Source: Lytechinus pictus
Taxonomy: Eukaryota
Reading direction: 5' to 3'
Assembly (NCBI RefSeq): GCF_037042905.1
Contig: NC_087251.1
Span: 23,128,001 to 23,192,000 of the forward strand
Length of the DNA: 64,000 nt
The notes under the pieces are model-generated. The model ran no database searches, had not been told where the DNA came from, and was given only the letters and a program-made list of their open reading frames with translations. Positions 10,082 to 60,977 of this stretch are shown piece by piece. A program made the position numbers and the translations under genes. Position 1 is the first letter of the stretch, and each line of letters starts with the position of its first letter.

Positions 10082-10750
10082 TTTTCTTGGTTTATATTCT
10101 TCAAAGACAAATCAGCTGATTATACAAGCCATTCACTAAATCGATTTTCATCACTATATTGCATTTCGATATTATTTGAATTTAGAATCGGAGTTTGTCA
10201 TAGAACAAAAACAAATATTAAATGGCCTTTTAATTTACAGGTATATGGAGAGAGAATCTGTACAAGTCAATGTCTAGTAGCAATGATGTTGGCAAACGAG
10301 GGGGTGTATTCACATCAAAAGAGATAAATTTTAATTTCCCAAGTGCTCGTTTTTAGGTTATATTAGGTTCAACCTACTCATTATAGGCCCTATAATGATG
10401 TACACATTCTTGTAGACGATCCGCGACTGATTCATCCTAATCTCCCAGACAAGATACCAGTTTTTCCAGGTTCAAAGGTTCACACTCAATGACAGGGCGA
10501 TTATCAAGGACCAATAAAACCTAATTTCTTTTAAATCTATCTATTAGTTTATTATGTTTACATTGGGCTTTGTGGCTATCCACTGATCAATACCTTATCA
10601 TTCACGATTTATGAAATCATCGAAACGGTGATTTAAAGTTTAACATATAGACTTATTTATCTCCCTTTTGTAGTAAAATAAATAAGATCGAAAGTAAGCA
10701 TTATCAATTTTTAATAGATGATTGCAATATAGGCCTGTATACTCAAGACT

Positions 10751-10915
10751 GGGCATGATAGCTCAGTGGTAGTACATTTCCGCCGTTAAGAAAGGAAGAT
10801 CGCGTTCGATCCCCCAAATAGCGTTCGATCCCCCCAAATAGCTCAGCATTTATATTGGAAAAGGATAATGATAACATTTGGCTTCCCTGGCTTCCCTGTA
10901 ATAAAACGTTATTAA
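10751..10915 (+). mobile_element. tRNA-derived SINE remnant
   Basis: A box TAGCTCAGTGG and B box GTTCGATCC. The B-box segment gcgttcgatcccccaaata is tandemly duplicated. There is no intact cloverleaf. Confidence 0.65.
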
Positions 10916-15491: not shown

Positions 15492-15857
15492 CTGGTGGCG
15501 TTTCCTTATCATAAAACAAATCGTAAAGATACGCACGACTTTACGCTCAGTCAGCTATTAGACCAGCCCCTGGACTGATAGACCGGCATCTCATCTCAAC
15601 ATTTAGGTTTTCACGTTTAACCGACATATTGATCCAATTGTCGATTTTGGCTCAACTAAACGTGATTAGACTTGCCTCCGTTGTGCTATTGAGTTTAGTC
15701 TGGCGAACTATATATGTCACATTAGAACATTCAGGAATTCAAAATACCCGACACGGAACTTACAGTCTGCACTGAAGCCCCCTTCGTATGGTCCAACAGC
15801 TATAGATCGGAATAATTTGGAATGAAAATATAACGGAATAATGATCAATTTTCTTAA

Positions 15858-16442
15858 AGGGATGGTCCGGGCTGAAAATATTAATATCTTAATACAGAGA
15901 GTAGAATTTACTGAGCAAAATGCCGAAAATTTCATCAAAATCAGATAACAAATAATAAGGTTATTGAAGTTTTTATAAGTTTAGCAATATTTTGTGAAAA
16001 CAGTTGTCATGAATATTCATTAGGTGGGCTGATGATGTCACATCTCCACTTTCCGTTTTCTTATGTTATTACATAAAATCATAATTTTTTCATTATTTCA
16101 TACTTCTGTGAATAATATGTCTCCCTTATAATGAAATAAGTTGCAGCAATAAATATCTAATGCACTAAATCGGTTGAAAATCAAATTTTTCTAGTTCTTG
16201 GAGGAAAACATTTGAATAAAGCTAATTTCATATTATAAAGTACAAAAGAACAAGTGGGGATGCGACATCATCAGCCCACCTAATGAATATTCATGACGAC
16301 TGTTTTCACAAAATATTGCTTAACTTTAAAATTCAATAACTTTGTTATTTGTTATCCGATTTTGATGAAATTTTCGGCATTTTGCTCAGTGAATTCTACT
16401 CTATTTATTAAGCTATAAATACTTTCAGCCCGGACCATTCCT
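15858..16442. mobile_element. Foldback MITE with TTAA TSD and AGG terminus (Kolobok-like)
   Basis: ~190-bp inverted arms starting AGGGATGGTCCGGGCTGAAA / TTTCAGCCCGGACCATTCCT, with TTAA at 15854-15857 and 16443-16446. Confidence 0.92.
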
Positions 16443-16692
16443 TTAAAAACCTTACAGTAGGCCTAAATACGACACAGGTATGTGGTTGACTGATTTATAT
16501 AGCTTTCACAACACAAACCCAAACACCGATGCATCCAACTACTATCCGGCCACCATACGCAGGCAATTAGTGTCGTGGTATTTTAAGAATATAAAAACTA
16601 AGTGAATGTTTTATTTTCACTATTAGAAAATAATTCATGAACTTTTTACATACAAATATATAAATGTTTTGTCTTGACCAAAATACATTTAT

Positions 16693-18200: not shown

Positions 18201-18471
18201 TTAGCACCATTTTTGCAATTTCAATGGCTGGGATTTATGCTATTAGCCATGGGCGGAAATCCCAGGGGGGACAGGGGGGACGTGTCCCCCCTACTCAAAA
18301 TAGTAGGGGGGACACAATATCAAATGTCCCCCCTACTATTTTTTGTCTTTTATGATGGTAAGAAATACATCATTCTAAATCGAAATAAAAGATGTATTTT
18401 GGGACGAGTTGACCGTACTTTTGGGATGATAACCTTTTTTTTGCTTGTCAAATTTTCCCGCCCCTTGTCCC

Positions 18472-20573
18472 CATAGGCGGATCCAGGAGGCCGGGCCCCC
18501 CCCCCCCTATTGGCGGAGCAAAAAGAGGAAAAAAAGGAAAGAAAGAAGGAAAAAGGAAAAAGGAAAAAAGGAGGGAAAAGAGAGGAGAAAAAGAAGAGAA
18601 GGCGACGAGTGCATAAAATAAGATGAGGGGAAGACTTGGAAAATAAAAACAATCTTTCGTGCCACTAAATAAAATTTTCGCTCGCGCTTCGCGCTCGCAT
18701 TGCCTGTTAGGTGATTTACATATCTTGTTCAATATGGGGGCTCAAATATCAAGTTTAGAAGTCAATATACAAAACATATTTCACCTCGGAGATCGAACTT
18801 TCATTATTTTGTGTGATTTACAAATTTATTTTTAAAAAGTGCTCTGTAAAAATGTCAGTTTTATGGTCTGAATAATTTTATCAACATTTGCTGCTTGCGC
18901 TGCGCGCTCGCAAATTTTGATTTATCAGGTACCTATTATTTTCGTGTATTCCATAAAGTTTTCAAAATATCCCTTTTCAGGTCTGATTGTCAAGACGTAT
19001 CAGCTAGCGCTGCACGCTGGCATTTTGATTGGCGAGTTATGTATGTTTCAATATTGATTATACAACAAACTACTTAAAATCCTCTTTTCATGACGGTTTA
19101 TCAAAAATTTTAGCTCGCGATTTGCGCTCGCATTAATGGTTGAAAATAAATTATATTAACTGATGCATCCTATTCATAATTACAAAAGTGAAATTTCCAG
19201 TTTTTATGCCATAATATCATCAGATTTCGCGCCCTCATTAGGCATTAATAAATATGATATTAATTTAATAATTAAATTGTCCCTTTTGTTTCATCTCGCG
19301 CTTAGCAAGAGGAATAGGAAGATAGTCATCATTTTCATGACATGTCGTAAGGATGTCCCGGTCCTATGTCAAAACTCAAAGTAATAATAATGACAATTTT
19401 AGCTCTTTTTTTAAAGTGCAATCCATATCCACCTTACAATTTTCCTACAAAGTGCTTGAAATATAAAGCGGTAATTGACTCTTTTTTCAGATCGGAATAT
19501 CAAAGTTTCATGATTTTCATGATTAAAGATGTATTTAGAATGCCTAGATTCTAGGTCTAAATATGAAACACGCGCGCGCATGTTTATTCAAATACTCAAC
19601 TTGTTCTCTATTTAAATCATTATCCAGTTTCAGATCACAATATCAAAATTTTTCTGCTCGCGCTTTTTGCTCGCATTATTAATGTAGGAAGACCCCCTAT
19701 TACTCATCCTTTTCATGATTTACAAAACATTAATTTTAATTGATTTATTTTATTTAAACACGGTAAAAAGCCCTCGATCACTTATGGCTGTTTACAAAAC
19801 ATGAACAGAGTGGCCCATTTTTAGGTCTAAATCTCGATTTTTTTCTATCCTGTTCACGAGTACAAAAATTGATTAAAATTTTCCATTCTTTCTTTAGAAA
19901 TTTTCAAAAATTTTCAGCTCGCGCTTCGCGCTCGCATTTTTTGATTGTTGAAATATGTAACGCCTTCATGGCTAAGTGCAAGCAGTCCTTAACAGGTACC
20001 TTTTCAACAGGTACGTATATAGAAAATTTCTGCTCGCGCTATGCGCTCGCATGATTAATACTCATCCTTTTCATGATTTACAAAACACGAATAGAGTGTC
20101 TCGTTCAGTAAATATTATAGGACTAGATCTCAAAATTTTGCGCTCGCGCTTCGCGCTCGCATCAATTGTCTACTTATATACCTATTCTGCTTGAGTTACA
20201 AAAGTGCTTAGAATTTTCATTCTTTAGGTAAAAATGTCCCCCAAAAAACAGCTCGCGCTTTGCATTCGTAGTAATTATTAAGTTGCATACAGATTTTTTT
20301 CAGGATATCAAACATTGCCCAGAATGTTCAAATTTTAGGAAAAAATACATAAAATTTCCAAAAATTAGCTCGCGCTTCGCGCTCGCATCATATAAATAAG
20401 GATTATGATATCATATATGAATTTATAAGAATAAAGCTAAAAACTGACTAATGAGGAATACCCCTTCAAAGAAACAAACACAAATCATCTTCGAGCTGCC
20501 GATCGGGGAAAATATGGCTGAAACAAATTTCCGCCCCCCCCCCCCTATTGGCGAAGGCTGGATCCGCCCCATG
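18472..20573. mobile_element. Nested hAT-like non-autonomous element carrying an internal repeat array
   Basis: TIR CATAGGCGGATCCAG / CTGGATCCGCCCCATG. Both flanks share TGTCCC (imperfect TSD). The subterminal motif cccccctattggcg occurs near both ends. Confidence 0.8.
18680..20388 (+). repeat. ~110-bp-period array with conserved core GCTCGCGCTTCGCGCTCGCAT
   Basis: Core copies start at 18680, 18893, 19003, 19113, 19656, 19917, 20032, 20142, 20251 and 20368, with degenerate copies near 19225, 19294 and 19570. Confidence 0.9.
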
Positions 20574-21306
20574 TGTCCCCCCTACCTTTTGGGAGAGATT
20601 TCCGCCCATGCTATTAGCTATGAACTTTGTAGGGATATTTTCATAGAGAAATCTTCCGGTTTTCGACATCTTATTATATAAGTCCATGATAATACTAACC
20701 TTGTTCTATATGAATTCATGCATGCATGAAAAAACAAAGAACGCATGGATGGGAGCACGATTTTTCATTTTTTTCATGTTTTGAATTGGATAATATAGAT
20801 CGACCAAACTCGGAGGCGAAGTCACTAGCATCGATTAGCATGGCAGTTCAATGCGAGCGTGCCGTCTTCGACTTGTTTGCTGTGTACTTTGGTAGGCAAT
20901 GTTGGCTCTGCCTCGCTCATCAATTGAAGATTGTCGCAGATCAGCAAGCAGCTGCCCGCCTGCACGTTAGGTACACACCACCAGAAACCATATCCCTGAT
21001 CAGGTAGACAAGGGAGAAAGAGGAGTTGAAAAGAACGAGATGGTAGTTGCAAAAGGGTAATAATAGAATATTATTCAAACAGTTTTCCTCAAAATTCTTC
21101 CGAGTGAGTATCAAAAGATAGAAATAACTGATTAACCAAGATAATTAAGTGGGGTAAATGGGATATTATCATGCATTTTATTAAACAATGAAATGCACAT
21201 TGGAAAAACAGCTAAGCTGAAATATTTAGAGAAAGAGAGAGGGAGGGGAGAGAAAATTAGACAAAAAGAAAATACAAAGTGAGAGGTTCTCGAGAAAAAA
21301 AAAAGA

Positions 21307-23230
21307 AATTCAATTCAATTCAATGTTTTATTCAATTCCAATAAAAATCAATACAGAGTATAGAATACAGTAATAACAAATACAATGTACATAATAAGGC
21401 ACGAAAATGTAAGGTACATGTAAAACAGGTATTAAACAGATACAAATCCCAGTAAAAAGATACAATATTGGAATTAGGTGGTCATAAAAACCTATCAAGG
21501 TTTGTCGAGATAACCACCCTTATATAAATAAAATAAGCCACATTGAAATTATAAATTTAGTAAAATGCTAATTTAAAATTGAATTCAATAATTAAAATCA
21601 TTTGATAATACATGTACAAGTAATACTATAAACATATATAAGTTAAAACACGTTTAACAGGACAAACCAAACAAATAAATACACAAGGGCAGTAAAAATC
21701 CTTGTTTTCTCACATTATTGATTAAATATAGTTTCAATTTCCTGCTAAAAGAATTCGTTGAACTGATTGATCTTATTTCTATTGGAAGATTGTTTCAAAC
21801 AGCTGGAGCATGGTGTCTAAACGAGAATAATACATAATTTTTATTTACAGTCCATAAGTGATATTTATTTTTGTTTCTTGTATTATAATCATGAATATTT
21901 ACATTTAAATCAAGCATTGACGATATTGAATTATGGAGTATATTTTGTTTATGTTTAAAAAGTAATATTGCACAGAAGTAGGAGTTGAGTTGATAAATAT
22001 TCAGAACATTGAATTTCACGAAAAGTTCTTTAGTGTGGGCCTATCTGTGAGAAAATGAACATATTCGGATAACTCTTTTTTGTAAAATAAACAATCTTTC
22101 TAGTTTTGAGGGATATGTATTTGCCCATACTACGTTACAATAAGACAAGTACGGATTAGTAGTAAGATTAAGGTATCATACAATGTTAAAAGAATGTGTT
22201 GAGGCAAGAAGTCACTAAGTTGCGGATGATACCGATATTCTTAGATATTTTATTTGTCACGTCCATTATATGATTATTCCATGAAAGTCTTTCGTCAATT
22301 AAAACGCCTAAGAACTTTGAATTACTTACACGTTTGATAACTTGATTATTCATTTTAATATCTAATACTTCAATATTATTTACTATATTATGTCCATGAA
22401 ATAATATATAGTTCGATTTGTCCAAATTCAGAGAGAGTTTGTTATAATAAAACCATGCGGTTACATGAGGTAATTCTTGGTTTAAAACATTATTCAAAGA
22501 TTGTAGTGTATTATCAGAAACTAAAATATTGGTATCCGCAAATAACAAAAATACCAATTTGTCTGAACATTTTGGTTAAATCATTGATAAATATTAAAAA
22601 TAAGAGCAGTCCGAGGATAGATCCTTTGGGCACACCATATAAAACATTTAAGGGTTCAGCTAAAACATTTTTATAAGAAACATATTGCACACGATTTAAT
22701 AAATAATTCTGAAACCAACATAATACATGACCCCTTATTCCATAAAATTGTAATTTGTGTAAAAGTATATTATAGTCAATGCAATCAAAAGCCTTGCTAA
22801 GGTCTAAAAATATTCCGATAGTGTGCAATTTCTTATTTAATGAATTGATAATATTATCATGTAAGTTAATTAGGACCATTTCAGTGGAAACATTTTTTTA
22901 AAATCCATATTGCACGTCATTTAAAAGAGAGTTGCAGTTAAGAAAATTATATAATCGATTATAAACAATTCTTTCTAAAATCTTTGAAAAATATGGTAGT
23001 AGTGAAATGGGACGATAATTAGAGACATCGTGTAGATCACCTTTTTTATGAACAGGAATAACTTTTGAAATTTTCATTTTAGAAGGAACTATGGCAGAAG
23101 ATAGTGATAAATTAAAAATATGACATAACGGATGCAGAATGAATATAATCACTTTCTTGATTACAACTGGACTTAAATCATCGATACCACAACTACTGCT
23201 ACATTTTATATTTTTAACAATCTCAATAGG
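21307..23230 (-). mobile_element. 5'-truncated, inactivated CR1/L2-group LINE (RT domain, 3' UTR, (TTGAA)n tail)
   Basis: Broken ORFs 22898-23281, 22514-22879 and 22186-22557 contain YRPISLLPYFSKILERIVYNRL, QYGF, FLDLSKAFD, GVPKGSILG, LFADT and KFLGVLIDERLSW. Stops and frameshifts are present. There is a 3' UTR stem-loop at 21477-21518 and an AATTC-repeat tail at ~21307-21324. Confidence 0.93.
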
Positions 23231-23344
23231 ACCAAGAGATGCAGTAACAAAAAGGCTGATTATTAAATATTCAAGTACCAAGCCTTACTTTATTGATGTA
23301 TTAAAAAACATGGTTTATGTTAAGGTAGTGGAAGTGATCACTGA

Positions 23345-23450
23345 TAGTAGTAGTAGCAGTAGTAGTAGTAGTAGTAGTAGTAGAAGTAGTAGAAGTAGTA
23401 GTAGAAGTAGTAGTGGTAGTAGTAGTGGTAGTAGTAGTAGTAGTAGTAGT
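23345..23450. repeat. (AGT)n microsatellite
   Basis: Direct reading; it produces the poly-Ser in ORF 23139-23555. Confidence 0.95.
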
Positions 23451-26400
23451 TATAGCAACAACTGTCTTATTTTTACTGTATTAGAGAGAAGGGGTGTTGT
23501 TTTCTTTTGTAGGCATATTCCCCCTAACATTACAAATTTTTTGGTGATAAAGTAAAATACTTGAAAATCAGCATCCATAAATTTCTCAGCCGATAAGCAA
23601 TAGGGGTTTTGTGAGACTACATTATAAGGAGAAGCTTCTTTCTTCCCATGCGGTTTTTATCATGGTGATCAATAACCAAGCATTTGTGGTCTTCTGTCTC
23701 ATAATAAACGTGACATTGATTTTGTAATACAGTGTATGTACTTTCCGCACTCTCTTAGTCGGTTTTATTTAAATGGAAGATGATTCAAAAGATTTTCTGA
23801 TCAAAATAGTAAACTTATAATATCAGTAAAAGTGCGCGGCAAATGGTACTGCATTATAAAAGTGCTTGATTAATTATGTTGATCAAGTTAGCTGATAAGT
23901 ACTGCATAAAAAAAATTTGATATGTAAAGTTAAATCAAAAGTGTCATTAGATTTTAGTATGTTACTTCAACTTTCCGAGAGAACGGAGGATGAAGGGATA
24001 CGTAAACTAAAGAAGGCATACACAAAAAATAAAATGAAAAAAAGTAATTAATTAACGAACGAACATACAACAAATAAACTTGAAAGCCTAAAATGTTTGA
24101 TGAACGGAAGTCATTGTATTGTAAGTAGAGTGTTTGTAAGATTTGTTTTTTTTATTTATATTTTTAATTATTACGCATTATTTAAACAGGGTAGCCCCAT
24201 CAGTAGTCAAATACGGTTGTTTTGTCGTTTTAAGTGCTTAATTTGAGATTGATATCCTTTTCCACAATTCTCTAGAAATTAAGCACTTATCCATAGGAAT
24301 GTGATGCTTGTATATTCTTCTCTCACATCACAGTGAATCATATGGTATACCACGTCCTCAAATCTCAATGTTTCAGAAGTATATTGAACCTGCCGACCAA
24401 TATAAGCGACTTCTACAATCCCGCTAGTCGCTTGGCTTAAAGCAGGTGCTACGGTAGCTTTAAAACGCAAACAATATGAATCTTTACTTCCGGGGTAGTG
24501 GTAATGAAGTGAAAATGTTGCATGGGTCCAGTCCCATAAGCTGGCAGTTGTAAATGTCAAATCAATAGACTATTCGAAAATCGGTAGCCATTTCTTTTAT
24601 TTCCAAGTTATACCTATCATTAATAGAAGCGAAACACCTGGATCGGAAGCTCATCGATTTTTGTTAGGTTTCAAGGACTTCTTTGCTTTGAATAGACGCT
24701 ACTTTTATTCTGAATTCACTTGTTGCTTTTTGAAGAAAAAAATGAACTATAGTATGGTTTGTTCAAATACTAAATTTATAGGCTACCATAGACTATTTGT
24801 TCTTCATAAACATTCATTAATACAGATGAGAAAACTTGTTATATCAAAGCTTGAATTTTTCTCACCTTTTCAAAGTCAAAATTTGATCCATTGTTGCCTA
24901 TGTTAAAAAAGGTCTTTGCCCATTTGAAAAAAAATCTTGTAATAAGTTTACATCTAACTTAGATAACAAGATGTTTTCATGTTAGAATTTGAAAATTATG
25001 AAATATTACCGTTTTTCAAAATTTCGATTTGCACCTTTTTCTACTTACAGCATTATTTGTTTTCCCTATTTTTATCTCAAGAAGAGTATGTTTATTCAAT
25101 TTTTCATTGAACTAAATATCTATTTCATCCGGTCTTTAAATTTACTTATAGGAATTCTAAAGATTATGTATACCTTCAAGTGTAATAAAGTAATCACAAT
25201 TTCGACTTTTGGTTTCCCATCTAAGTAGGTGAAAAGTACTTTGGAAAACCTTAGAAAAAAAAATAATATCTGCTTCCTTTGGCTACACCATAAAGTTATT
25301 GTCTCCTTAATAGGGCATTCGATTGGATTTCAGTTGTTTTTACTTTCTGTTCAGCCTTCTTATCAAACTCATTTGAAAAGTTATCCTGTATAATCCATCC
25401 CACGCTGAGTAAAAGGAGAACAATGACCTCGATGTTCCTCGCCTAGAGAAAAAGCTGATAAAGAAAACAAAATCTGCTGGATTATCTCTTCTGATGAGGT
25501 CTTTAGGCGTTTAATGTACAACAAATTATTTCCCACTTCGGTCCTTTATTGTAGATTCAAATACTATGTGATGTTTATACTGAAAATAAACATAAATGCT
25601 CTAAAATGATCTGGAAATGGTGTAAAAGGGGAAAAACAAAGTGGAATAATGTAGGAGGAGATGTCAAATGAATTCAATACACCGTCACAGCTATTTTATT
25701 CAAAAAATTGGGATGATAGACCTTTTAAATCACTTTGAATAATTTAATGCATTCATTGAAAATCAACAAAGTGCGCTTTATTATCATTTTGTTGTCGTTG
25801 TTGCACATGCACTTTGTATTCGTTCGCTAAAGAAAATAAAAACCAAACAAACATTCAAAGATAATCAGAAAGTAAATTGGGTTTGACTTAAACGTGGAAA
25901 TGACGTTAAATCCGCCCCTCACAGATGTAAATGTTGATTTAGAAATGTCGTCTCCAACCGGACAGCCATCAGAGTGGAGCTAAAAATACACAGGAGTTGC
26001 AAATTACCATCTGGGCGATTTATGCGTTGTATACCTTTGGAAGAAAATAGTTTTACACACTGACAGTTGAATGTATACAATCACTGTGTGAACAAAGGCA
26101 TTATGCATCATGTATCGATAGTCACCATACCGGCACATACTAGTCCATGTGTTTCAACTGAAGTGTGTTGAGAAAAACTGCACAGGTGCATTACTAGCAC
26201 ACACCAAGAAGGAGTTGACAATGAAATGTCATTTGAGGTTTTATTCCGTTGTGAGAAAAATTAATGTCTATATCAGGTCCATCAAGCTCTCACATAAAAA
26301 ATGGTAATGGCGCTATTAAAAAATATATTTTAATATGAAAAGATTATATGACTAATTTCCGAGACCTTAGCAAGAATGGCCAGAATCTTATTGAAATGTC

Positions 26401-39800: not shown

Positions 39801-41869
39801 TTCTGTGCAAGTAATTGTGAACTATATCTTCTGATTATCTGTTGAAGTTTGAAATAGATATCACAGAATTTTCAGGAAAATGGGAAAGTTTTCTTCAGTC
39901 AAACCATTAATGATGATGTGATTTTTTACTATCCTCTTATTCTAAATGCTATTCATATAAAAAAATGTTTTATTATTATATTCATAGATTTTGTCCGATT
40001 ATTATTCTAACGTTCCAATCGTGCGATCGCCGTATTTTGAGATAACCTTTGTTCACCATTCAAAGATGATAATGAAAAGAGCATTCACCATATTTCAGCT
40101 ACCTTATGGCATTTACTCTACTTCGAAATGATCAAATCCATTGGGGAGGTGTATGCCCTCTCTATGTTTAGACAGTTTCCCCGAGTAGATTTGTGTAATT
40201 CAGGTTAAAACAACAATCTAAGATTTCCTCGCTACCTACCCATTAGCGATTCCCGTGAAAAAGGCGAGAAAATCCATTACTTCACTTTTTGCTTTAATCT
40301 ACAGGGAGCGCCTTTCAGAGATAAGGGACTTTAAAAGGAAAAAAAGTAATCATGTCCTTAACTCTTAAGCTTGTACTTTTTGTAAAGTGTAATGCTGTAT
40401 CTTCAGAAGATATGAAAGTATTCTGAAATGTGATGACATTTTATAAGACTGTTTCTCTTTTCGGTTTATATAGGCCAATGGTATAACATTATACCTACAA
40501 AACATATATTGATATTCTGTGTGTTAATTTTATGGTGCATTATACATTAGATTTATCGAAGAGTATTTGATCGATGAAAATGAGGGTCCGACATCAAGAT
40601 TTTATCTTGTTCAAATCATCAACATGAATTCTGTCAATCGTCTTCTTATAATTCTCTCGTGAGATAAACTATTTGGACCAGTCAACTAGAAATAATGGGA
40701 TTGTGTCCATCCTCTGAAAATACCCAAGTGTTTTTTTTTCAGTTGGAAATCATGAATATTCATTTCACCGCGGGTCTAACTGACATAGTCCGAGAAGCGG
40801 AAACAAGCAAATGATTGATCAGTGTCCGTTGACATACAAATGAAACAAAATGGCGGCGCGATTGATCGTTGTTTGTTGATTTCATTGTAAAATACGCTGC
40901 CTAAGTTCACTGTTCTTGGAAGGCATCCCGACAAACTCATCTCCATCCGATTGTGTTTCGGGAATGGTTCGGTGTGTTGATTGGTGTCTGAAGGCATCTT
41001 TAAGACCTAAAATGGCGGAAACCTTCCGATCAATAGAGAAGGCAGTTAGTGCCGTCGGCAATCTACCAAGCTCGCTGACACGTTCGATCGAACGACATGG
41101 AATCGAATGTCGGATGGCGATTGGAGTTCGACGTTGATTCATGTTATTTATTTGGAAGGTTATCCCGGTGACTGAAAGATGTGGCATCTAAAAAATCTGA
41201 ATTGTAGTATCACAGAGCTATTTAAGTAAATACAAATTAAAAGAGAACTTGAGAAAGTTTAAGTACTCATTAAACCCCCATCCCTGTTCATGGTATAGGC
41301 ATATTTTATTATTAAGTTTAACATTTACCCCTCTCCCTCAAAAACACGATGTAAAACAAATTTGTGAAATTGCAATTAAATACATCCGACAAATTATTGA
41401 GAGTAGACATAATATAAGGTGAATTTCCTTTTAAACCATAGTAAATAAAAAATGAACCTTATAGAGAGGGATGGGTGATAAAGAAACCATGTACATGTAG
41501 TTGTACAGTATTGGTGAATAATCCAATCGTTATGTTTCATGTCAGAGGGACGTTGTGTTGATGTAGAATTGCTGGTCCATTTAACTCTGAACAAACTGAT
41601 ATCACGCTGAGGAGATCGCTGACTCCATACTCGCAGCATCTCAGTACCTGACAGGTTCAGACATTATGGCGCACACATCAATCACGGACATATTTTGGCT
41701 CAATTGCGATGTAATCCAATGGTTAGAATGATAAGGCGTTCCCTGTCAGTTCTGAATCTCAGTGTTAAAATAAATCGTGATAAGAATATTGCTGCTGAAA
41801 TATAGATGTTTCTATTGAACCAAAAAAAGTGTTAAACTTTGTTGAATCTTTAAGGGACTTGATATGCGT

Positions 41870-42069
41870 GTGTGCTCTGGGAGGGTTTGTAAAGTGCGTG
41901 TGCGAGTTTGGGACGGTGTGTATTCTGACGTGCGTGTGTGGGTGGATGCGTAAGGGTTACATAACCATGTGTGCTCTGGGAGGGTTTATGAAGTACGTGT
42001 GCGAGTTTAGGGGAGTGTGTATTCTGGCGTGCGCGTGAGGGTGGATGCGAATGTGTGTACATAACCATG
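41870..42069. repeat. Two-copy tandem repeat, period 99 bp
   Basis: tgtgctctgggagggttt...ggtggatgcg...tacataaccatg starts at 41871 and at 41970. Confidence 0.9.
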
Positions 42070-48424: not shown

Positions 48425-48615
48425 CACTCTAAAAACACTGAGTAAAATGTTACCCAATATTGGGTAGAAAGGGAACATGCATGTTTGCTGGGTATTTTTT
48501 GTACCCCATATTTGGCTATTTCAATGCAACATTTCGGTTTTTTTTTTTAACCCTACCAACATGCATGTTCCCATTTTACTCAATATTGGGTAAACCTTTT
48601 TTTACCCATAAAGTA
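48425..48615. mobile_element. Palindromic CACTC-type MITE, right end eroded
   Basis: CACTCTAAAAA start and inverted arms ttacccaatattgggtagaaagggaacatgcatgtt / aacatgcatgttcccattttactcaatattgggtaa. Confidence 0.65.
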
Positions 48616-50153: not shown

Positions 50154-50395
50154 CACTGCAAAAATTCCGGTGTTGATTTAACACCAGTCCGGAAGCTATA
50201 TATGTACACACCAGAAAAGTATTGAAACAACACCAGTTTGGAATCAAACTGATGCTGTTTTAATACTAATTGTTGTTGTATAAAGACATATCTGGTGTTT
50301 GACCAAAACCAAACTGGTGGTGTTTAACACTTCTCTGGTGTGGACATATATAGATTCTGGGCTTGTGTTAAATCAACACCGGGGTTTTTTCAGTG
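50154..50395. mobile_element. Foldback MITE with CACTG ends and 2-bp TG TSD (CMC/EnSpm-like)
   Basis: tg-CACTGCAAAAATTCCGGTGTTGATTTAACAC ... GTGTTAAATCAACACCGGGGTTTTTTCAGTG-tg, with repeated acacca / tggtgt motifs. Confidence 0.88.
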
Positions 50396-60741: not shown

Positions 60742-60977
60742 GATTTATTTATTTATTTTTTTTGATTGATTGGTGGTGATTTTTTTACCTGATTGCTAAG
60801 AAAGCATGAATGCTTGTAAGCAAGCAACCAGAGGACCGACGGCTTAAGGTCCCCCCCGAAGGACCTGGTACTGAGGATTAATGCCTTACCAAAGGGCACA
60901 AGCGCACCAAGTGGGAATCGAACCCGGGTCACCGGAATACGAGTCCCCCGCTCTACCGACTGAGCTATCGCGCCTCC
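60742..60977 (-). mobile_element. Apparently full-length tRNA-derived SINE
   Basis: The minus strand reads GGAGGCGCGATAGCTCAGTCGGTAGAGC (A box) ... GGTTCGATTCCC (B box), then a body gtgccctttggtaaggcattaatcc...ggaccttaagccgtcggtcc, then an A-rich (AAAT)n tail. Confidence 0.9.

Follow-up and report, generated by a model that had tools for sequence, protein, structure and literature searches.

To understand why a short, CpG-rich palindrome is repeated many times inside a transposon of Lytechinus pictus, we analysed the repeats, the elements that carry them and similar sequences in other collections. The repeats lie in a 64,000-nucleotide stretch of contig NC_087251.1, referred to here as the window, which is AT-rich (27-45% GC per kb). 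The window contains ten copies of a 21-mer with up to five mismatches, all on the plus strand, that start at 18680, 18893, 19003, 19113, 19656, 19917, 20032, 20142, 20251 and 20368 and carry 0, 3, 4, 2, 3, 0, 2, 0, 5 and 0 mismatches, respectively. The initial annotation had counted at least ten clear copies; ten are present, spanning 18680-20388, but only four are exact, the other six being degenerate with two to five mismatches. The next-best sites in the window have seven mismatches, and the eight copies that lie within three mismatches compare with none in 100 dinucleotide shuffles. Successive cores are separated by 213, 110, 110, 543, 261, 115, 110, 109 and 117 bp, all of which had been recorded before except for the gaps of 543 and 261 bp. 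An A/T tract had also been noted in front of most copies, and AAAATTT is indeed found within 14 nt upstream of six of the ten (eight if one mismatch is allowed), against a background of 0.39 per kb in the window.

The spacers, which are 88-96 nt long, are related to one another. Mean pairwise identity is 0.84 for the core and 0.49 for the spacers, compared with 0.39-0.44 (mean approximately 0.40) in ten shuffled spacer sets. Spacer alignments gave a mean z of 1.41 over 45 pairs versus -0.03 over 90 control pairs, with four of the 45 pairs above z 3 compared with three of the 90 controls. A profile derived from six spacers alone revealed additional, decayed units with lost or reduced cores within the 543- and 261-bp gaps (E 1.3e-6 to 0.08); at the seven core slots expected there, the best cores have 7-11 mismatches of 19. 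We estimate that the array (18680..20470, plus strand, from the spacer profile and alignments) comprises approximately 16 units of about 110 bp, ten with the core kept and about six coreless. Since the spacers are related, the array is an old head-to-tail tandem repeat rather than a CRISPR, as the initial annotation had proposed, and a 19-nt core, in many cases preceded by an A4T3-4 tract, has outlasted the rest of the unit. The earlier statement that the core is better conserved than the spacers holds on alignment, but not the description of it as nearly constant, as 19 of 210 core positions are substituted, and the contrast between core and spacer is in part one of ascertainment because about six units have no core. 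The array was not reported by Tandem Repeats Finder.

The array was thought to be carried inside a transposon, which proved correct, but the carrier consists of two nested elements rather than one. The outer element (18248-20610) has perfect 14-bp terminal inverted repeats (TIRs), with CATGGGCGGAAATC at 18248..18261 on the plus strand (14/14 complementary) and its counterpart at 20597..20610 on the minus strand, and is flanked by an identical 8-bp target-site duplication (TSD), CTATTAGC, at 18240..18247 and 20611..20618. These are hallmarks of the hAT superfamily, in which short TIRs range from 10 to 25 bp (PMC3942097). The left body of the outer element (18262..18471, plus strand) contains inverted and direct TGTCCCCCCTAC subterminal repeats, and the inner element, 2102 bp long (18472..20573, plus strand), sits within one subterminal repeat of the outer one, giving a composite of 2363 bp; excising it leaves an outer shell of 255 bp. 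The inner insertion likely generated a 6-bp duplication, TGTCCC, read from the sequence, with its left copy at 18466..18471 and its right copy at 20574-20579, where the right body of the outer element (20574..20596, plus strand) begins. As read, this duplication is exact over 6 bp, and a duplication of 7 or 8 bp requires the loss of one or two bases in the C run. The inner element has a left subterminal C-run repeat (18495..18518, plus strand) that is 96% identical to 20533-20556, and its right end (20533..20573, plus strand) is composed of a C run, ATTGG, 6 nt and the TIR. The array begins approximately 200 bp inside each end of this inner element.

Pfam searches gave no matches among the 12 ORFs of the element, so that no coding capacity was found, and no transposase was detected among the ORFs of the window. 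MITEs are usually non-coding and under 500 bp in length (PMC2872659); the host had been annotated as a MITE, a designation that suits only the outer shell in size, as the 2.1-kb carrier of the array and the composite are too long. We read both elements as non-autonomous and hAT/Tip-like, an assignment to the Tip group that reflects the resemblance of their termini and C-run repeats, the formal criterion being transposase clade. Their CAT ends and the 8-bp TSD fit the P superfamily too, which has a THAP transposase as partner, CAT ends and TSDs of 7-8 bp, and a P-type origin may apply; the ends resemble those of Tip100. Long inverted arms and mirrored arrays were not found in the element and all ten cores are on one strand, which rules out a foldback element with tandem-repeat TIRs. 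All results on the element derive from one genomic copy, the only one in the window. A plasmid search gave no match to it, comparison with a eukaryote-like genome, G002, gave only four short AT-rich matches, and in a search of sequencing runs 20 of 24 rows (nine studies, three coded organisms) shared 12-40% of the sampled words, none reaching half; no RNA run was listed among them, and these runs are left out of the argument.

Among known transposons, Tip100 is close in several respects. The outer TIR matches 9 of 11 Tip100 TIR bases and the outer element has an 8-bp TSD (PMC12511174, PMC3942097), the right end of the inner element has the same layout of C run, ATTGG, 6 nt and TIR, with 14 of 16 terminal columns matching when compared by eye (PMC12511174, supplementary Fig. 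S1), and C-run subterminal repeats are present in both (PMC12511174). In contrast to Tip100, the elements described here have no transposase, have T rather than G as their third base and show, as read, an inner duplication of 6 bp; the hairpin array is absent from Tip100. The 6-bp duplication around the inner element, and a 5-bp TSD in an element with the same 20-mer on a metagenomic contig (L007), recall the hAT5 and hAT6 groups; TSDs of 5-7 bp are reported for hAT5-7, and membership of hAT5 or hAT6 rests on the transposase (PMC12730594), which is absent from the window. Tandem arrays or conserved interiors within non-coding elements have been described for Tetris, Galileo and sea-urchin foldback elements (PMC4079207) and for the coral CMITE (PMC2872659). 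However, the repeats of Tetris, Galileo and the foldbacks are located in mirrored long TIRs, whereas here the ten cores face one way between short TIRs, and the interior of the coral CMITE is a different sequence.

What, then, distinguishes the core? Its minus strand reads G-CGAG-CGC-GAA-GCG-CGAG-C, that is, a GCGAAGC mini-hairpin on a CGAG block (tandem sheared G·A pairs), whereas the plus strand would carry T·C mismatches and a TTC loop. The GCGAAGC mini-hairpin melts at 76.5 C and is exonuclease-resistant, and tandem mini-hairpins are bound poorly by single-strand-binding protein (SSB) (PMC13037366); the CGAG block has been defined by NMR (AUTS2 promoter; PMC10085684). The minus strand of the core stacks the d(GCGNAGC) mini-hairpin and the CGAG block one under the other. 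The motif is strand-asymmetric, fits a DNA-specific hairpin design and, as described below, occurs far beyond this element. Its asymmetry rests on this literature, since with the DNA parameters of ViennaRNA both strands have an energy of -4.8 kcal/mol. The published roles of the mini-hairpin are in phage and plasmid priming sites and in the N4 promoter, in contrast to its arrangement here as an array in a eukaryotic transposon. The available text of the mini-hairpin review (PMC13037366) does not contain the string 'transpos', that of a structured-RNA survey (PMC5737381) contains neither 'GNA' nor 'triloop', and among open-licence papers, searched at the level of abstracts, we found none tying the hairpin to eukaryotic transposons; Dfam or Repbase may already contain the present family of elements.

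The ten cores, all with the hairpin on the minus strand, have decayed to different extents. Core 1 (18680..18698) has an intact CGAG-block/GAA hairpin, as do core 6 (19917..19935), core 8 (20142..20160) and core 10 (20368..20386). Core 2 (18893..18911) has a GCA loop and one arm change, and core 3 (19003..19021) has a GCA loop with the closing pair and both arms altered. Both GCTCGC boxes are intact in core 4 (19113..19131), in which the loop and inner stem are damaged, and in core 5 (19656..19674), in which the inner stem is lost. Core 7 (20032..20050) has an ATA loop, probably a GTA loop after a C-to-T change, and core 9 (20251..20269) is heavily decayed. A half-core remnant is present at 19294..19306 (plus strand), with weaker remnants near 18784, 19225 and 19561-19581. 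Thus, four of the ten cores are fully intact, seven retain both CGAG arms and both GCTCGC boxes, and on the minus strand five keep the c-GNA-g loop, in which a GNA triloop is closed by two G-C pairs. The middle, free base of the loop is altered in three of ten cores and the three sheared-pair adenine sites in none of 30; the Fisher p is 0.012, rising to 0.049 when the change in two of the copies is counted as a single event. The most mutated position is the loop-closing CpG, with C11 changed to T in four of ten cores compared with four transitions at 90 other CpG positions; loss of constraint and exposure of a loop base both fit this mutability, which cannot separate them. The cores of this genomic copy are now decaying.

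The class [CGAG block]-[variable Watson-Crick stem]-[GNA triloop] is, judging from sequence comparisons, kept as a one-strand structure, and this is the best-supported step of our argument. A search of viral contigs with the 19-mer frame and a free loop gave at least 121 loci, of which 109 remained when 12 duplicate contexts were dropped. On the strand with the TC arms, the loop was T-N-C in 61 of 109 and G-N-A in 5 of 109 among the matches listed (backgrounds 8.7% and 7.2%). Counted by cluster, again among the matches listed, T-N-C was found in 16 of 60 and G-N-A in 4 of 60, one cluster alone accounting for 42 loci, and the 15 listed clusters below 55% GC included ten with T-N-C and none with G-N-A. 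Flanking hairpins at the same viral loci vary in stem sequence and length but keep the pairing and the loop rule, in 41 of 45 GA-arm and 13 of 13 TC-arm cases, which are not independent of one another. In cyanophage S-RIP1, the non-coding DNA that separates the terminase gene from a series of small genes contains two such hairpins facing each other.

When the A tract was required and the insert left free, perfect GNA hairpins were found in 36 of 55 viral clusters (at least 120 loci, among the matches listed). A short form of the hairpin with AAAATTTT on the same side as in the array was present at 48 viral loci in 28 clusters, compared with one locus for the control TTTTAAAA and none with the tract on the opposite side, against octamer backgrounds in viral flanks of 41 vs 16. 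The long form was accompanied by an A tract at 1 of 67 viral loci. The combination of long form and A tract gave no matches in the GTDB collection, where the short form with an A tract gave 35 matches in 11 clusters, including one three-member cluster that looks coding. One cluster of 21 loci, within L304-L338, shares sequence together with the A tract and short hairpin across cyanobacteria, Acidobacteria and Verrucomicrobia records and is possibly the end of a mobile element. A prokaryote-like contig (L002:2145-5642) contains twelve CGAG/GNA hairpins with varied stems in both orientations. Across three whole genomes, G001, G003 and G004, the hairpin is not in excess (45 vs 46, 2 vs 1 and 6 vs 12).

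In eukaryote-like DNA, seven other Tip-like elements or ends contain the long or the short form. The long form is found in three Tip-like elements (L004, L007 and L012) among 11 metagenome matches. One of these, L007, has both ends, a 5-bp TSD and the same 20-mer within a hAT remnant (Pfam PF05699, E 1e-5), and in L012 both ends are visible and a TSD was not found. On the L007 contig (50-1292) this element, 238 bp long with its 5-bp TSD, is nested in the hAT remnant, which itself has a near-perfect 8-bp TSD, identified by eye, an arrangement that resembles the nesting in the window. The short form is found at Tip-like ends in four of the 35 GTDB matches (L332, L333, L334 and L336), which look like eukaryotic contaminants; both ends are visible in L336, where a TSD was not found. 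The difference between the long and short forms amounts to 2 bp per arm, as expected of a hairpin. These TIR loci cannot themselves show covariation because they were found with exact patterns. The same core was also observed in a near-exact 104-bp tandem duplication on an unrelated contig (L010:239-363), a period close to that of the array.

The eukaryote-like genome G002 is repeat-rich, with 113 reverse transcriptase matches in 12 Mb, and gave 193 hairpin matches compared with 11 for the reversed pattern. The pattern CTCG-N-C-NNN-G-N-CTCG matched 93 times vs six for its reverse, and counting by eye gave a T-N-C loop in 76 of the 93, a G-N-A loop in none and complementary free stem bases in 85. 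A form with one extra stem pair matched 54 times vs seven reversed; of these 54, again counted by eye, 48 have a T-N-C loop and 47 a complementary stem. The stems are of three and five types in the two patterns, respectively, and represent copies of few families rather than independent events. Of the 51 hairpins in stretches of this genome chosen for a match, 43 are located at the tips of long palindromic elements and one has an A tract; a loosely defined A-tract pattern shows no enrichment (34 vs 44 in the control). Among these stretches (L369-L388 and L395-L397) we observed numerous families of palindromic elements that have a CGAG/GNA tip, their arms ranging from tens of bases to more than 100. 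Such tips may also be borne by the CryptonA and Eulor5-6 consensus sequences. The available text of PMC3212892 and PMC5753468 contains neither 'hairpin' nor 'palindrom'. Eukaryote-like DNA is present in several entries of the prokaryote collection (G002, L332, L336 and L392:3270-5596); in L392, GC-rich coding DNA switches to AT-rich DNA with a repeated unit that we take to be eukaryotic 5S rDNA.

In our preferred explanation, to which we give about even odds, the core was retained for its fold in single-stranded DNA, which would serve to protect, pause or prime while the element is copied and would favour duplication of the core in tandem. The core would have been kept while the family was active because its minus strand folds whenever the DNA becomes single-stranded, as might occur in gap repair after excision, on the lagging strand or on extrusion by supercoiling. 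Once formed, the fold would resist exonuclease and single-strand-binding protein, and could pause polymerase or start primase beside the A/T tract. The outcome would be that complete copying of the element is favoured and that slippage from hairpin to hairpin builds the array. Weighing against such a fold, half of the cores are without the c-GNA-g loop and Tip100 is without the motif; the text of the Tip100 supplement (PMC12511174) gave no motif match, in a search that could miss matches spanning line breaks. Since Tip100 transposes with only 100 bp of each end (PMC12511174), the array is unlikely to be essential for cut-and-paste transposition. A more speculative extension, which we think improbable, is that A4T4 together with the CGAG-block/GNA hairpin constitutes an ancient single-stranded DNA priming or pausing signal, common to phage ends, prokaryotic repeats and eukaryotic non-autonomous transposons, and that non-coding cut-and-paste elements keep it, and in this locus multiply it, because it enables their copying via a single-stranded intermediate.

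The core might instead be a double-stranded protein site, in which two direct GCTCGC boxes beside an A/T tract are bound either by a ZBED-like factor of the host or by the partner hAT transposase through its zinc finger, the array supplying secondary sites; this is the main rival, although we regard it as doubtful. The hAT-derived BED protein ZBED6 has GCTCGC as its consensus (PMC2780926), Hermes has BED domains that bind cooperatively to short subterminal repeats and depend on AT-rich flanking DNA (PMC10368747), and in Galileo additional transposase sites are present in the internal tandem repeats (as cited in PMC4079207). The locus has two exact GCTCGC boxes per core, an AT-rich flank and a hAT context, each box is intact in eight of ten cores as compared with alterations in the middle three bases in six of ten, and CpG is intact at 40 of 50 core sites, the spacers having 8 CpG compared with 17 expected. 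However, the boxes are 7 nt apart here and 3 nt apart in L332, L333, L334 and L336, which have the same ends, loop rule and A tract, and the hairpin design with covarying stems occurs in phages and prokaryotes. Phages and prokaryotes are not known to have hAT BED proteins. Separate C-run repeats of the inner element stand where Tip100 has its own, and the boxes are far from the tips, near which Hermes sites must be precisely placed (PMC10368747); ZBED6 is described as confined to placental mammals (PMC2780926). The cores are also without helical phasing. Phase coherence of the ten cores at periods of 10-11 bp is low (R 0.09-0.29) and the gaps are irregular, which rules out helical phasing and leaves the proposal of a fixed, phased spacing unsupported.

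A further alternative, rather unlikely in our judgement, is that the hairpin module is a neutral passenger, captured from another repeat and multiplied by slippage. Its apparent conservation would then stem from conversion among the cores, from faster mutation of the A/T-rich spacers and from a count restricted to units whose core is good. Such a passenger would account for the coreless units, about six of some 16, and for the broken loops in half of the cores; two spacers share a recent 37-bp duplication (z 12), Tip100 manages without the motif and internal tandem repeats are common in transposons (PMC4079207). Against it, four identical cores are spread over 1.7 kb while the spacers downstream of them score at chance (six pairs, z -0.6 to 1.3), and the same module is present in the seven unrelated Tip-like elements or ends.

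That the array encodes repeated RNA hairpins, as had been suggested, or is a CRISPR-like array processed to small RNAs is very improbable in spite of its repeat-spacer appearance and the better RNA fold of the minus strand (-7.9 vs -5.8 kcal/mol for the plus strand): the spacers are related, Rfam gave no match at gathering score, nor any across the array with E as high as 1, none of 136 ORFs in the window had a Cas-like Pfam match, and an RNA hairpin in particular is unlikely because the RNA folds are no better than shuffles (z -0.14 to -1.02) and a related mini-hairpin octamer melts at 39 C as RNA compared with 76.5 C as DNA (PMC13037366). A CRISPR array shares the short palindromic repeat and longer spacers but is ruled out by the homologous spacers and decayed repeats, the lack of cas genes in the window and of an Rfam CRISPR repeat match, and the eukaryotic transposon context.

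The element itself is ordinary selfish DNA. Its repeats are what has survived best of an ancient tandem array that is decaying within a nested pair of non-coding elements. Transposons with internal tandem repeats are already known (PMC4079207), as are both halves of the hairpin. To these the locus adds the periodic arrangement of the hairpin within a eukaryotic TIR element, its recurrence at Tip-like ends and its coupling to an A tract. A hairpin design specific to DNA, familiar from the chemistry of oligonucleotides and from the origins of phages, is kept, with covarying stems, in eukaryotic repeats, and the same design recurs in Tip-like transposons. If the hairpin acts on single-stranded DNA, it would represent an unrecognised step in the copying of non-autonomous elements; if the reading as an ancient signal is true, it would help to explain why non-autonomous elements outnumber their autonomous partners.

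The remainder of the window contains further repeats and gene-like sequences. A profile search for a flanking host gene returned a single uninformative match, and a promoter and terminator scan of the window was likewise uninformative, being based on a bacterial model in a eukaryotic host. A weak match to a lysosomal alpha-mannosidase-like domain at 24282-24569 (minus strand, E 5e-5, below the cut-off) is possibly an exon. A tRNA-Thr-like gene was called by ARAGORN at 60902-60973 (minus strand) and a second tRNA-like head was spotted by eye at approximately 10750-10850 (plus strand); either may be a SINE. A broken LINE-type reverse transcriptase occupies 21800-23450 on the minus strand, with Pfam RVT_1 matches at 22517-22897 and 22901-23284, and adjoins a (TAG)n run at 23345-23450. 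Long inverted arms were also found in three small elements (15851-16449, 48450-48593 and 50154-50395), and a 99-bp tandem repeat at 41869-42069 is present in two copies with 86% matches.
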